DNA of 64,000 nt from Candidatus Woesebacteria bacterium (GTDB lineage Bacteria > Patescibacteriota > Microgenomatia > UBA8517). Below, piece by piece: positions 28,244-32,760 of this stretch. The notes under the pieces were generated by a model. The model was not told the DNA's origin. It did no database searches and saw nothing but the letters and a program-made list of their open reading frames with translations. A program made the translations under genes and the position numbers. Each line of letters begins with the position of its first letter. Position 1 is the first letter of the stretch. Where the stretch lies: assembly GCA_013374835.1 (NCBI GenBank), contig CP055307.1, positions 215,315 to 279,314 on the forward strand, given 5' to 3'.

Positions 28244-30844
28244 TCAGGTTAAACTTCCTGTAAGCCTATAATTCTGGATATAAGGCAACAGGTTATCGCC
28301 AGGGCAGTTGGTGGCTGCCCCAGGCACTTCGGTGTGACCCAATACTCGTTCTTTGGGAGTATTTCGCTGCTTTCTGATCGTGTCGAGGAGTTGCTGTAGT
28401 GTGGCTAACTGGGCTGCTGTCGGGATTTCATTTCCTGCTGTCGAGTGGAAGTCTCCGCATACACATACCCCAATAGATCGGTAGTTTTGCTTGTTGCTGT
28501 TGGTGTGCGCTCCGATCCAGTTCTCTGGTCTTCCTTGTATTAGTATACCATCTCCATCGAGTAAACCGCTAACCCATTTATGGTAGCCGATGTCGCCCCA
28601 GCCATAGCTTATATGTGCGTTTTTGATGGTTATGAACTTAGTTGAATCTCTGGGTGTGGCGCTGTGATGGACAATGATAAATTCGGGATAGTTGGCTTTA
28701 TCATAGGCTGCTAAATCCTTCGTGATTGTTGTCGTTCTTCTCTTTTGTTGCCAGGCGATAATAAGTTGTGCTGCCCATTGTCCCGCTCCGCCCTTGCTGT
28801 AGTCGACGATATACTTCGCATTGCCGATAGCGCTGTGTTCGCTTTCGATTACTAGTCCCAGCTTCTGGCTTGCGTCTCCAATCCAGCCTGCTCGATCCAC
28901 TATCTCCTGGACGATTTCTTTCAGCTCTGGCGACTCGTAGACGCTCTGAGCAGTCCAGTGAATACCTGTCAGTATTCCTCCTTCTGCTACACCCAGTGTC
29001 CATTGCACCCAGGCTTGGGTTTTCATTCTGGTTGATGGTCTGTTTGATCCATCACTGGCAAAGGGCGCAGCATTGTCTTCTGCGAAGCCCCTTATAATCC
29101 AGTTGGTCATAGCGTTATTCTGGTTGTCGCTGGTCACCAGCAGGCGAGCGGAGACGATTTGTGCTTTTTTGGGAATTAAAATCGGACTGAAGATAAAGCC
29201 TGCGTCATTGGGTGAGGCGTCTGGCGAGTAAGTGCCATCATCTCCACAGGTGATTCGGTTATTGCCCCAGCCGTCAGGATACCAGGCGTTAGTGGGTGGA
29301 GTTTTGTCTCGGTAGTCTTCTTCGCCGTCTCGGTCATTTAATTGCAAGAAGGAAACATTAACCTCTTTGTCAAACCAGTAAATCTCCAGTTCGGCTTTGT
29401 CTTCAGCACCGCTTGAACTATCCCAGACGCTCTTGCAGTTTTCCGCAGCACTGCCGTCATCCTCGATTATGAATGCCATCGCATTGCCTGCCTTCCAGTC
29501 GCTTTGTCTCACCAGTTCTTGCACTATCAGGAGCAGGTTGGGAGTTTGCACCCATTCGTTGACATTCCACTGTTTATAAATTTCCCAAGCTACTGTGTCG
29601 ACTGTTTTTGGTTTCGTACTTGGTTTGTTCGTGGCGCTGAATGGCTGTACGTCGGCTTCTTTGATACCTTTGATTCTTAGCTTGGTGGTAAATGCGGTGG
29701 AATCAGTATAAGCACAGCGCAGTCTCAGTCTAGCAAAGAAGATAGTGGCGTTTCTAGGAATATTGACATGGCGGAAGCGGAACGCTCCTGTATGGGTTTT
29801 ACCTCCATAGTTGCCCATCGTTATGATGTGACTGGCATTGCCGTCCTTATTCCAGTTGCCGTCACTGTCTTCTCTGCCGTCATCTGAGTTTTGCTCAATG
29901 ACATTGTAAGTTTTTAAGACTTGGTTTTTGCTTTTTTCGGTGGGTGGAATTGCTTCCTGAATGAAGTAGCGCAACTCTTTTTCGATTAAATGCTGGGTAA
30001 GAATTGTGTATTTGAGTTGTTTTTCAATCGCAGGCGGTGGCACGATCTCATAGCGCAGGCTCTTGGTTATTTTGATTGGCGCTTTATCGATGCAGTATTT
30101 CAGCTGTTTTGTGATCGGAGTGGGAGTAGTCAGGACGCCGTATTTAAGTGCCTTCTGGATGAGACTCACTCCTGGCAGGTCGATGCGGTAGGTCAGGCTC
30201 TTTTGGATCGGGGAAGGGGTGGCGTCAACCGCATACTTCAGTTGCTTGGGAAGATTGACCCCTTGTATCTGCGGTTCGAGGTAGTAGGTGAGGGATTTTT
30301 GGATTTTGGTCGTTGAGCCGAGAGTTACCACTAACTCTGGTGATTCGGTTGCCCCTTGATTGTAGTCCCAAATGTTTTCGTATTGGTTGCTTGGGCTGGC
30401 ATCATCTTCAATCACTAGGGCGATATCTCCATTAAAGCCTGTCTGGTTGACGATTTCCTGAATAATGCTAGTAATGTCGGGGCTTTCATACCAGGTGTTA
30501 ATTGCCCAATCTGTTCCTATGTCCCAGTCTACGGCTGCTATGGTTTTGGGTCGGGTGGATGGTCTGGTTGCCTGATCCCAGGTGGCAGGAGCTGCCTGGA
30601 GGATTCCTCTAATTTTCAGTGTCGGTCTTTTGGTTGAGTTGACAGCGCATTTTACTCTTATCTTAGCATTTAAGATGCTGGCATCCTCGGCAATGCCTGA
30701 ATTGTCAAATCTCAAACCTACATCACAGCTGCCTGTGCCGTCATGACCTATTGTCGATTGGTTGCTGGCGTAGCCGTTGGGATACCAGGTCGTATCGTAA
30801 TCTTCTTCACCATCGTCGGTGTTAATTAAGATCTCCAGAATCAC
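28244..30844 (-). CDS. Tail fibre/tailspike-like protein with three copies of a novel ~170-aa domain plus C-terminal Amidase_2 (N-acetylmuramoyl-L-alanine amidase, PGRP-like)
   Basis: Three copies of DDGEEDYDTTWYPNG...AINTWYESPDI...IVxExV...IEDD domains at aa 1-175, ~305-490 and ~495-690. An 8x IxKxLxY tandem-repeat linker. C-terminal IIVHHSAT...GYHKW...GAHTNSNKQNYRSIGVCVCGDF...LGHTEV...TNCPG, an Amidase_2 Zn-site pattern. Confidence 0.7.
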   Translation of the reverse strand: MILEILINTDDGEEDYDTTWYPNGYASNQSTIGHDGTGSCDVGLRFDNSGIAEDASILNAKIRVKCAVNSTKRPTLKIRGILQAAPATWDQATRPSTRPKTIAAVDWDIGTDWAINTWYESPDITSIIQEIVNQTGFNGDIALVIEDDASPSNQYENIWDYNQGATESPELVVTLGSTTKIQKSLTYYLEPQIQGVNLPKQLKYAVDATPSPIQKSLTYRIDLPGVSLIQKALKYGVLTTPTPITKQLKYCIDKAPIKITKSLRYEIVPPPAIEKQLKYTILTQHLIEKELRYFIQEAIPPTEKSKNQVLKTYNVIEQNSDDGREDSDGNWNKDGNASHIITMGNYGGKTHTGAFRFRHVNIPRNATIFFARLRLRCAYTDSTAFTTKLRIKGIKEADVQPFSATNKPSTKPKTVDTVAWEIYKQWNVNEWVQTPNLLLIVQELVRQSDWKAGNAMAFIIEDDGSAAENCKSVWDSSSGAEDKAELEIYWFDKEVNVSFLQLNDRDGEEDYRDKTPPTNAWYPDGWGNNRITCGDDGTYSPDASPNDAGFIFSPILIPKKAQIVSARLLVTSDNQNNAMTNWIIRGFAEDNAAPFASDGSNRPSTRMKTQAWVQWTLGVAEGGILTGIHWTAQSVYESPELKEIVQEIVDRAGWIGDASQKLGLVIESEHSAIGNAKYIVDYSKGGAGQWAAQLIIAWQQKRRTTTITKDLAAYDKANYPEFIIVHHSATPRDSTKFITIKNAHISYGWGDIGYHKWVSGLLDGDGILIQGRPENWIGAHTNSNKQNYRSIGVCVCGDFHSTAGNEIPTAAQLATLQQLLDTIRKQRNTPKERVLGHTEVPGAATNCPGDNLLPYIQNYRLTGSLT
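29940..30300 (-). repeat. Tandem coding repeats (~36-45 bp period) encoding 8x I-x-K-x-L-x-Y units
   Basis: Protein segment IQKSLTYYLEPQ / LPKQLKYAVDATPSP / IQKSLTYRIDLPGVSL / IQKALKYGVLTTPTP / ITKQLKYCIDKAP / IKITKSLRYEIVPPPA / IEKQLKYTILTQHL / IEKELRYFIQE. Confidence 0.6.
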
Positions 30845-31260
30845 CTCATTCCACCTCCTTCCGCTTCGTCAACTAAAGCGATCTTGTCGTTGGGGTAAAT
30901 ACAAATCAGCTTTTGCAGACTTCTGCCTCGGTTGTCTTTTACCTTCCAGCCGAAGAAGTAAAGTCTAATCCAGTTTTTTTGCCCTGCAAGTCTCACATTG
31001 CGGTAAAAGTGGATTAGGTCTGCGCCCTGCGGAGGAATAAGGAGGTTTATTCCTTCTGGGTTTTTGTCTGAGACCATCTGGAAGGATTCGATATTTGCCT
31101 GATCTATCTCTCTGAACTGATGGAAGATACCTGTTGCCTCGTCGAATTGGTGGAGGGAAGTGCCGTCTTTATAATGCGCTACCCACCGCCAGCGCTCTCG
31201 AATAACTTTCTCGGCTTTGCCTGTCTTTGGTCTGATAAATGTGAACTCTGTTTTTCGCAT
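30841..31260 (-). CDS. Hypothetical protein
   Basis: 139-aa ORF overlapping the downstream fibre gene by 4 bp. Confidence 0.4.
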   Translation of the reverse strand: MRKTEFTFIRPKTGKAEKVIRERWRWVAHYKDGTSLHQFDEATGIFHQFREIDQANIESFQMVSDKNPEGINLLIPPQGADLIHFYRNVRLAGQKNWIRLYFFGWKVKDNRGRSLQKLICIYPNDKIALVDEAEGGGMR

Positions 31261-31319
31261 TGTATTGCTCGAAGGCGCATTGGATTGCGCTAATTCCTTT
31301 TAACTGCTCAGTCATGTTT

Positions 31320-31836: not shown

Positions 31837-32118
31837 TTAACTTTGGGAGTTATTGCTCCCTCTTTTTTTGTCAGGCGGGACATCCAGCTTAATGTTGTAT
31901 CTAGCATTGGTCTTCATTCCAATTACTCCCATAATCTTGCGAAGCGCTGCTATTGTGCTGCCTTCCTTTCCGATCACCAAACCTGCGTCTTTTTCGTCAA
32001 GTTTGACTAAAAGAAGCACTCCCATCTCGTCGACTGTGCGTTCAACTTTCACCTTATCTGGCTCATCGACAAAGGATTTTATGATTTGTTCTAATAATGC
32101 TGCGTCGCTTTCTTGCAT
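31837..32118 (-). CDS. KH-domain RNA-binding protein (KhpA/YlqC-like)
   Basis: KH core LVIGKEGSTIAALRKIMGVIG with a flanking beta-alpha-alpha-beta-beta-alpha pattern. 93 aa, the same size as bacterial KhpA. Confidence 0.6.
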   Translation of the reverse strand: MQESDAALLEQIIKSFVDEPDKVKVERTVDEMGVLLLVKLDEKDAGLVIGKEGSTIAALRKIMGVIGMKTNARYNIKLDVPPDKKRGSNNSQS

Positions 32119-32148
32119 TCCGTTTCACCTCCTTTAGGCGTTAGTTTT

Positions 32149-32760
32149 CTAATTTATATTTGGCGCTATTGTCAAAATTAACCTGGCTGCATTTGCTGCC
32201 CCGCTATTAAAGTCATAGATGTTTTCATATTGGTTGCTTGGACTGCTATTGTCTTCGATTACCAGCCCCAGAGCTTTGCCTGTGTATTCTGGCTGGGTTA
32301 TAAGCTCGTCAATGATTGCTTTAATGTCTGGGCTGTCATACCAAGTATTGATCGCCCAGTCCGCTCCTGGTGTCCATGCTACTGTCGCCGTTGTTTTGAC
32401 TCTGGTTGATGGGCGATCAGCACCTCCTGCTGCAAAGGTGTTCGAGCTTGGCTCTTTAAGTCCTTTGATTACAAAGACTGGTCGCTTGGTTGAGTTGACT
32501 GCCGACTTCACCCTAATTACCGCTTTGACGATTTTGGCGTTATTGGGAATTACGGGGCGGAGAAATCTAAACCCGCCGTCACAGCTGCCTGTGCCGTCAT
32601 GACCGATACTGATCTGATTGCTGGCAAATCCATTAGGATACCAAGTTGTATCGTAATCTTCTTCACCGTCATCGCTACCGATTAAAATCTGTAGCTTGGT
32701 AAGAATGTTTTTTTCTAGTTTGTTATCGGTTCTTAGTTTAGCCATAGTTTTATAGTTCAA
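32149..32760 (-). CDS. Stand-alone copy of the novel DDGEEDYDTTWYPNG domain (paralogue of the 866-aa fibre N-terminus)
   Basis: LQILIGSDDGEEDYDTTWYPNGFASNQISIGHDGTGSCD...AINTWYDSPDIKAIIDELI...LVIEDNSSPSNQYENIYDFNSG aligns along its whole length with aa 1-175 of ORF 28244..30844. Confidence 0.6.
   Translation of the reverse strand: MNYKTMAKLRTDNKLEKNILTKLQILIGSDDGEEDYDTTWYPNGFASNQISIGHDGTGSCDGGFRFLRPVIPNNAKIVKAVIRVKSAVNSTKRPVFVIKGLKEPSSNTFAAGGADRPSTRVKTTATVAWTPGADWAINTWYDSPDIKAIIDELITQPEYTGKALGLVIEDNSSPSNQYENIYDFNSGAANAARLILTIAPNIN

Follow-up and report, generated by a model that had tools for sequence, protein, structure and literature searches.

DNRLRE/CBM96-like domains joined to a peptidoglycan amidase in a Woesebacteria prophage

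The stretch of DNA analysed here (the window) comprises 64,000 nucleotides of a Candidatus Woesebacteria genome (assembly GCA_013374835.1, contig CP055307.1, positions 215,315 to 279,314) and contains a prophage that encodes four copies of one beta-sandwich domain. Three are found in an 866-amino-acid (aa) fusion protein (28244..30844, minus strand), which also carries a repeat segment and a C-terminal amidase, and the fourth makes up a stand-alone protein of 198 aa, here called S (32149..32745, minus strand). We show that all four, though divergent, belong to the DNRLRE/CBM96 superfamily of beta-sandwich carbohydrate-binding modules (CBMs). The domain is already described, and what is new is its combination with an Amidase_2 enzyme in a prophage of a candidate phyla radiation (CPR) bacterium. 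Taken as a whole, these data seem to us best explained by glycan-binding modules that target a virion-borne amidase to the host wall, a view that we hold with a little more confidence than doubt.

Four copies of a DNRLRE/CBM96 domain

Within the fusion protein the copies are c1 (aa 1-178; 30311..30844; pI 4.1), c2 (aa 306-492; 29369..29929) and c3 (aa 493-700; 28745..29368; pI 4.7), all on the minus strand; c2 is orthologous to the first domain of the 2-domain amidase proteins described below, and c3 has two insertions relative to the other copies. In a BLASTP comparison S matches the 866-aa protein in three collinear segments, at aa 3-175 (59% identity, E 7e-68), aa 310-486 (35%, E 3e-32) and aa 506-696 (37%, E 1e-32), and a six-frame profile scan of the window returns exactly four copies and no fifth, which upholds the count given in a first-pass annotation of this DNA. 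That annotation had taken the stand-alone copy to be a 203-aa open reading frame (ORF) at 32149..32760; the ORF exists, but the NCBI gene call is 198 aa long and, on our reading of the ORF translation, starts at ATG 32745 rather than TTG 32760. Identity between pairs of copies is 35-39%, with the exception of c1 and S (58%), and all copies are net acidic (pI 4.1-6.0). A four-way alignment bears out the acidic start (DDGEED, DDGRED or RDGEED), the WYPNG, WNKDG or WYPDG block, PST(R/K)xKT and (V/I)IE(D/S), as previously proposed. The same cannot be said of a conserved Cys pair: each copy has one or two Cys residues at non-equivalent sites, and there is no conserved Cys column among 31 homologs.

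The identity of the domain, which the first-pass annotation could place in no family and regarded as novel, follows from a profile match and from the predicted fold. The NCBIfam model DNRLRE_dom (NF033679) scores the 866-aa protein at 36.2 bits (E 5.9e-9), a narrow margin above the curated cutoff of 34, and aligns aa 21-174, within c1, to positions 9-164 of its 164-position profile. Among the homologs, 18 of the 31 match the same model (E<=0.1; best E 1.5e-8). S alone finds no match in NCBIfam, and neither Pfam nor PHROGs has a match over the domain region. An AlphaFold2 (AF2) model of S, built from the 31-sequence alignment, is confident and consists mainly of beta-strand (pLDDT 88.6, pTM 0.85). 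Searched with Foldseek against solved structures, this model matches 8WAB best (E 2.3e-8, probability 1.00, TM 0.58/0.65), followed by BMP9 prodomains and then 7VBO (E 5.6e-6, probability 1.00, TM 0.49/0.53). In UniProtKB the protein of 8WAB is classed as containing a DNRLRE domain (PMC12611786). For its part, 7VBO is about 30% identical to DNRLRE-domain proteins and has BMP9 prodomains among its own structural neighbours (PMC9971899); the neighbours of the S model match the list reported for 7VBO, BMP9 prodomain included. Among viral models in BFVD, the top structural match is a 'CBM96 domain-containing protein' of Brevibacillus phage SecTim467, and Bacillus phage G gp367, several 'tail protein' entries, the phage SP-15 pectate lyase and an Arthrobacter-phage minor tail protein come next. 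The copies therefore belong to a characterised CBM family at the level of the superfamily, the Pfam CBM96 model itself (PF24517) missing them, and these profile and fold matches suggest, by homology, that the earlier proposal of a carbohydrate- or cell-wall-binding module on a lysin was sound. A further link comes from another contig (L025; loci and proteins are referred to by our own L and P numbers), in which a 760-aa protein clears the Pfam threshold for Disaggr_repeat (54 bits, aa 478-646) and our domain-family profile covers overlapping residues (aa 486-646; E 2e-4 in a single-protein search with the HMMER filters off).

The window copies belong to a branch of this superfamily, marked by a DDxEE motif, which we show to be large and poorly modelled. 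A branch profile built from the four copies and six homologs was searched against 1.84 billion representative proteins and matched 14,251 of them at E<=1e-3, 7,195 at E<=1e-10 and 754 at E<=1e-30, most being proteins of 1,000-5,800 aa with 3-8 copies. The motif DD[AGS]EE is present in 185 of the 375 extracted domains that include the N-terminal part. In the 203-aa numbering of the stand-alone ORF, D31, E34, F66, P72, A80, I98, G100, S118, T123, W129, P144 and E152 are conserved both in the phage set and in the wider one, with D31 and E34 reaching 96% and 90% across the whole superfamily branch, whereas G32, W40, G44, G53, R116, P117, K122, E169, S173 and D183 are conserved in the phage subfamily only. 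Because the core columns are common to both sets, the motifs noted earlier are mostly a superfamily signature. Ten giant members of the branch have no Pfam match on the domain, and DNRLRE_dom appears in three of the ten, in each case below threshold at about 32 bits or less; a literature search for SDDAEE or DDAEE returned irrelevant matches only. A domain that looks like an orphan to Pfam and PHROGs can now be named a DNRLRE/CBM96-like carbohydrate-binding module, and since at least 14,000 protein clusters of the DDxEE branch are unmodelled or sub-threshold, a profile made for this branch would allow many giant surface proteins to be annotated.

The amidase, its stand-alone partner and the repeat cassette

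The fusion protein ends in an Amidase_2 domain, an N-acetylmuramoyl-L-alanine amidase of the peptidoglycan recognition protein (PGRP) type, at aa 718-850 (28295..28693, minus strand; the ORF itself ends at 28244). Pfam PF01510 recognises it at 62.6 bits (cutoff 26), its PHROG matches fall exclusively in amidase/endolysin families, and its matches in the PDB are PGRP-LB, PGRP-LC and T7 lysozyme. In an alignment with catalytic PGRP-LB (1OHT), the window segments 'iivHHs', 'digYh' and 'lGHtev..atnCPG' pair with 'viiHHs', 'digYs' and 'lGHrqv..dteCPG', so that the zinc-ligand and catalytic columns H, Y, H and C are all kept. We take the two His and the Cys to be zinc ligands and the Tyr to be catalytic, as in T7 lysozyme and PGRP-LB. 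With these columns conserved the amidase looks active, as far as an alignment can tell, and the PGRP-like C-terminal domain of the first-pass annotation is confirmed. The amidase domain is basic (pI 9.0).

We compared the window with 15 related prophage loci in species-representative genomes (16 loci in all), from genomes titled as Patescibacteria lineages or apparently mislabelled ones. The metagenome-assembled genomes of L006, L008, L010, L014 and L017 are titled 'Pseudomonadales' or 'Gammaproteobacteria', and one isolate name contains 'PATE'; they are probably mislabelled Patescibacteria bins. All 16 loci pair a domain-amidase fusion with a stand-alone domain paralogue. In the 15 related loci the stand-alone gene is followed by the fusion after at most one to three small genes, and in L020 the two are directly adjacent. 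Their synteny is conserved and runs capsid, 200 aa, 107 aa, S, (KH), amidase fusion, adaptor, 492 aa and a fibre-like 443-aa protein. A search with the full protein recovered 46 clusters of such fusions.

These fusions come in three architectures. Twelve loci encode a 2-domain form of 548-563 aa, which begins at aa 305/306 of the 866-aa protein, and two loci besides the window encode the long form (862-866 aa). The third architecture (P0219/P0220, 686-688 aa) starts at the repeat array and is without c1; in L026 the order is S, KH, 167 aa, 136 aa, 686 aa and adaptor. In a distance tree of all domains, c2, c3 and S each form a clade and the c1 copies fall inside the S clade, in agreement with the high c1-S identity relative to all other pairs. 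This suggests a path in which a 2-domain amidase gained the repeat segment and then a copy of S, the alternative being that c1 was lost in L026. The series from 2-domain, through repeat plus 2-domain, to c1 plus repeat plus 2-domain illustrates neatly how a lysin can be put together from duplicated and fused genes and a captured mobile stalk cassette.

The interval of about 130 aa between c1 and c2 is a repeat array and not a plain linker. Eight units of 14-17 aa occupy aa 181-301 (29942..30304, minus strand; pI 9.6); the motif [ILV]x[KRQ]xLxYx[IV]..P occurs there eight times, against 0.07 expected from 20,000 shuffles, and nowhere else in the protein. The approximate consensus is ITKSLKYTVKTTPSA, and units of this kind recur with a strict 14-15-aa period, 4-36 to a protein, in more than 20 proteins of 660-1,480 aa (P0254-P0289). 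A profile search of these repeat-rich proteins did not find the DNRLRE/CBM96-like domain. Some of them bear Laminin_G_3 lectin-like domains, and they lie in the structural modules of other phages. The repeat has no Pfam or PHROG match; PHROGs on the repeat-rich proteins are limited to families of unknown function, for P0263, and Tandem Repeats Finder detects no DNA-level tandem repeat beneath the segment. In a full-length AF2 monomer model the three domains and the amidase are confident and aa 177-305 fall to a pLDDT of about 30, a prediction compatible with a stalk that forms on oligomerisation.

Repeat-bearing proteins travel with two further genes, of 167 aa (31320..31823, minus strand) and 139 aa (30841..31260, minus strand; its stop overlaps the start of the 866-aa ORF). 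Homologs of the 167-aa protein, 65-77% identical, precede every repeat-bearing protein examined (L015, L022-L026), and homologs of the 139-aa protein (31-41% identity) lie directly upstream of the repeat-bearing protein in L022-L026; the 2-domain loci are without both genes. A profile of the 167-aa protein finds nothing significant in the PDB. The capsid proteins of L022-L024 are 23-29% identical to that of the window and among themselves, in contrast to the much closer 167-aa proteins, which implies a horizontally mobile three-gene cassette. In the siphovirus-type contigs L023 and L024 the cassette sits between the capsid gene and the head-completion genes. In L025 the repeat-bearing protein is followed by the 760-aa protein introduced above (11514..13796), which has two Laminin_G_3 domains and a canonical Disaggr_repeat (DNRLRE), and lectin-like and DNRLRE modules thus seem to be interchangeable cargo of fibre cassettes. 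It is conceivable, if rather doubtful, that the 167-aa and 139-aa proteins and the repeat stalk constitute an undescribed mobile fibre module of environmental, CPR-associated phages, which here has captured a lysin and displays it on a head-proximal fibre. If this were true, the amidase and three lectin-like modules would be carried on such a fibre and not at the tail tip or in the capsid interior, and the phage would be carrying its wall-degrading enzyme in a novel manner.

Entry or lysis

In every locus examined, the amidase fusion gene lies between the SU10_MCP gene and an ortholog of SU10_adaptor. In the window the gene for the SU10-type major capsid protein (33860..35026, minus strand; Pfam SU10_MCP, E 7.6e-47) is upstream of S, and that for the SU10-type head-to-tail adaptor (227 aa; 27546..28229, minus strand) follows directly downstream of the amidase gene; the adaptor is 84% identical to its L026 ortholog, which passes Pfam SU10_adaptor (30.3 bits, cutoff 27). 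The gene order is capsid, 200 aa, 107 aa, S, KH, 167 aa, 139 aa and 866 aa, and then 227 aa, 492 aa, 443 aa, 79 aa, 360 aa and 1795 aa. The slot between capsid and adaptor genes is occupied in phage SU10 by the head-fibre-like gp10, and it is the ejection protein gp20 that degrades the wall when SU10 enters (PMC9509320). The description of the fusion as a tail fibre in the first-pass annotation goes beyond what this placement shows: its gene occupies the slot of a head-fibre-like protein in SU10, and its repeat cassette precedes head-completion genes in siphovirus-type contigs. From this position of the S and fusion genes, flanked by those for an SU10-type capsid protein and adaptor, we think it somewhat probable that the virion carries both products.

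Evidence that S can be joined to a particle-attachment domain comes from L014, L016 and L017 (9563..10579), in which the S domain stands behind a DUF2793 domain (73 bits) in proteins of 336-338 aa; the corresponding clusters P0025, P0036 and P0043 have 65, 46 and 15 member sequences. DUF2793 is described as the particle-attachment N-terminus of tail-fibre and receptor-binding proteins with variable host-binding C-termini, and proteins containing it have been detected in particles by mass spectrometry (bioRxiv 10.1101/150227; PMC5026251). We also considered whether the 338-aa proteins might be fusions with the upstream 107-aa gene, and rejected this since the 107-aa gene is still separate in those loci.

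The sequence of events that we favour would then run as follows. The modules would bind a glycopolymer of the Patescibacteria host envelope. The ancestral pair c2 and c3, together with c1 as a later copy of the S gene, would hold the zinc amidase on the wall so that peptidoglycan is cut locally, and S would be a separately encoded adhesin of the same kind, either free or bound to the particle. Both proteins would act at adsorption and entry, carried on the virion by attachment to its head or tail. The role of stalk or spacer would fall to the 14-15-aa repeat, which presumably came from a different phage lineage along with the genes for the 167-aa and 139-aa proteins. To judge from the domain tree, c1 as an S paralogue probably shares the ligand of S, and c2 and c3, which form separate ancient clades, may recognise other epitopes. 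The window copies are acidic, in contrast to the Lys/Arg groove of CBM96, and this suggests that the ligand is probably not a simple polyanion or else that binding is metal-mediated. The R116/K122 pair is kept in the subfamily specifically, despite the net acidity. It is speculation on our part that the D31/E34 pair is a candidate metal or ligand site.

Several observations weigh against this account. Every functional step in it is one that we infer. The family sequence profile finds nothing significant among PDB sequences, so the link to 7VBO and 8WAB consists of the fold and of one barely supra-threshold hidden Markov model match, and the Pfam CBM96 model PF24517 matches none of the four window copies at E<=1 and only two of the 31 homologs (best E 1.4e-4). 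The acidity of the copies means that both ligand and binding mode may differ from those of CBM96, and the stalk segment is left unmodelled by AF2. The stretch between the capsid and adaptor genes also holds SAP- and KH-domain genes, and therefore not every gene there need be structural. Finally, an Amidase_2 enzyme joined to wall-binding domains is also the classic design of an endolysin, and the C39-like peptidase of the prophage, described below, is only a candidate endolysin that PHROGs does not recognise.

This last point leads to the strongest alternative, in which the 866-aa protein is an endolysin acting from within late in infection, its domain copies are wall-binding domains like those of lysins from phages of Gram-positive hosts, and S is an accessory binding subunit. 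There are precedents for such subunits in the two-gene lysin PlyC and in some enterococcal and clostridial lysins with extra cell-wall-binding-domain (CBD) subunits. The intact catalytic residues and the PHROG matches in 'lysis' families would fit this alternative well, as would the labels given in the sources, which call the protein solely an amidase or a PGRP-family protein. In addition, the S and amidase genes are always close (adjacent in L020), and no other recognised peptidoglycan hydrolase family was found among the scanned prophage ORFs. We nevertheless consider it unlikely on the basis of where the genes lie and what they are joined to. The amidase gene is placed between capsid and adaptor, its direct neighbours being the 139-aa cassette gene and the adaptor, and not in a holin-adjacent cassette; the nearest and only holin-like ORFs (16352..16832) are some 11-12 kb downstream. 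At the end of the late operon, about 10-12 kb from the amidase gene, there is a separate candidate lysis cassette (16352..17941, minus strand). Its largest product, at 370 aa, is a Peptidase_C39_2 protein (PF13529, E 3e-11) that combines a long coiled coil with a hydrophobic helix at its C-terminus; the other two are of 73 aa, with two hydrophobic helices, and of 89 aa, with a single such helix at the C-terminus. The viral contig L027 retains the peptidase and the 89-aa protein; it is the one close relative returned by a scan of viral contigs with the C-terminal part of the 1795-aa protein. None of the three proteins is recognised by PHROGs; we infer a role in lysis, and the C39-like protein, if it is the endolysin, would be an unusual membrane-tethered lysin. 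An endolysin also sits poorly with the occurrence of S fused to DUF2793 and with the capture of a repeat module otherwise seen in large proteins of structural modules.

The remaining alternatives concern the domain itself. The copies might not bind glycans at all and instead be structural or scaffolding sandwiches, or a prodomain-like shield that keeps the amidase inactive until triggered. The presence of BMP9 and TGF-beta prodomains among the best structural matches is in keeping with this idea, and the acidic copies could make electrostatic intramolecular contact with the basic amidase. The proven alginate-binding CBM96 has the same prodomain matches, however, so that these reflect fold and not function, and the stand-alone copy, the DUF2793 fusions and the Laminin_G_3 domains in neighbouring fibre proteins suit adhesion better than enzyme latency; we regard this alternative as a whole as very unlikely. 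Still less probable, in our view, is a jelly-roll glycanase or lyase that uses the acidic D...E pair and would make the 866-aa protein a multi-activity depolymerase. Acidic pairs on beta-strands are catalytic in some jelly-roll glycoside hydrolases (GH16), and D31 and E34 are strongly conserved across the branch as noted above, but the domain matches no glycoside hydrolase or lyase family, its nearest structures are non-catalytic binding modules, and an arrangement in tandem, with 3-8 copies to a giant surface protein, is what one expects of modules for binding or spacing. Lastly, a genuinely new family without relatives, as first proposed from what are indeed blank results with Pfam and PHROGs on the domain and with NCBIfam on S alone, is scarcely credible and already refuted by the above-cutoff DNRLRE_dom match, the 18 matching homologs, the concordant folds and the 14,251 related representatives.

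Prophage setting and comparison with known systems

The prophage measures about 40.5 kb (~14450..54950) and differs from its surroundings in composition, with a GC content of 0.45-0.51 and a strongly negative AT skew, against a GC content of 0.35-0.42 and a strongly positive GC skew (up to +0.35) in the host flanks (window 1..14000 and 54000..64000). It interrupts a comM/Mg-chelatase-like host gene, whose halves lie at 13499..14446 and 54938..55597 (both plus strand) and both retain a 'FLDE..EFS' segment, and one end is marked by a tyrosine integrase (14609..15679, plus strand). A search for an exact att repeat at the two ends found no common word of 11 nt or longer. A tRNA-Cys gene lies in the host flank at 57784..57856 (minus strand).

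Apart from the capsid protein, the prophage encodes a terminase and a weakly matching SU10-type portal. Two small proteins of a nucleic-acid-binding type are encoded inside the structural module. Directly after the capsid gene comes a 200-aa protein with an N-terminal SAP/Rho_N-like motif (33091..33693, minus strand), and a KhpA/B-like KH-domain protein (31837..32118, minus strand) is encoded between S and the amidase gene, as in most related loci, with L020 being without it. Beyond the adaptor, the 443-aa protein is fibre-like by its PHROG tail-fibre matches, and profiles of the 492-aa and 227-aa neighbours find nothing significant in the PDB (the best for the 492-aa protein being G-beta, E 0.076). 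The distal end of the module is taken up by the 1795-aa protein (17948..23335, minus strand). It carries an LPD38 'large polyvalent protein' domain and shows a weak PARP/ADP-ribosyltransferase-like match at aa 635-688; in the virion it may be an internal component or one that is ejected. Further prophage genes on the minus strand encode a staphylococcal-nuclease-domain protein adjoining the portal (40570..41571), a fusion of ParB_N with an N6/N4 DNA methylase (47524..48822), a protein with HNH_repeat and ROS/MucR domains (51103..52056) and a Rad52-family recombinase (53593..54279).

The closed genome CP058602.1 (GCA_013426185.1), of 818,817 bp, encodes an identical 866-aa protein, which one source assigns to Candidatus Woesebacteria; this assembly was included in a study of complete Patescibacteria genomes. 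The same phage is found on Logan contig L002 (43,137 bp) and on the IMG/VR contig L027. A tblastn search with the 866-aa protein against 50,697 phage records gave no match, and a literature search turned up nothing on prophages of Woesebacteria. Almost all that is known of CPR/Patescibacteria phages comes from metagenomes, and here there is a complete prophage of about 40 kb and SU10-capsid type in a closed Woesebacteria genome. It has a conserved pair of putative adhesin and lysin, and S and the domains c1-c3, as fluorescent fusions, could be used as probes of wall display on these uncultivated cells.

Two of the best-matching solved structures are modules of known binding preference. The protein solved as 8WAB is a chondroitin-sulfate-binding CBM, and 7VBO is the founding member of CBM96, the alginate-binding module TM6-N4 of alginate lyase Dp0100. 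CBM96 has the same fold as the window copies and is likewise appended to an enzyme that acts on a polymer, with the difference that its partner is a polysaccharide lyase and the partner here is a peptidoglycan amidase. TM6-N4 binds its polyanion through a basic groove formed by Lys10, Lys22, Lys25, Lys27, Lys31, Arg36 and Tyr159 (PMC9971899), the counterpart to which the acidic window copies were compared above. DNRLRE domains (NF033679, and the narrower Pfam PF06848 Disaggr_repeat) are beta-sandwiches of about 160-200 aa that occur in tandem in large surface proteins, as does the family described here, the window branch differing in that it begins with an acidic DDxEE strand, represented in the copies by DDGEED near the N-terminus.

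Comparisons with phage proteins concern placement and build. In the DUF2793 proteins DMS3 gp49/JBD26 gp59 and RcGTA Rcc00171, the variable, host-contacting C-terminal position is the one held by the S domain of L014, L016 and L017. Those DUF2793 proteins belong to siphovirus tails and are encoded after the central fibre gene, whereas S of the window is without DUF2793 and is encoded near the capsid gene. The triple beta-spiral shaft of the adenovirus fibre is built from a repeat of about 15 residues, and the window repeat resembles it in its 14-15-aa period and in an alternating hydrophobic strand followed by a Pro-containing turn; this is a resemblance only, no sequence or structural match to the window repeat having been obtained and the monomer model being disordered there. 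Compared with known lysins, the placement of two to three paralogous DNRLRE/CBM96-like modules N-terminal to the enzyme was not found described in the literature searched, and the host is a CPR bacterium. The general plan is one shared with other modular phage peptidoglycan hydrolases, including endolysins, SU10 gp20 and virion-associated lysins such as phi29 gp13: as in those enzymes, a catalytic module is combined with non-catalytic modules for targeting.

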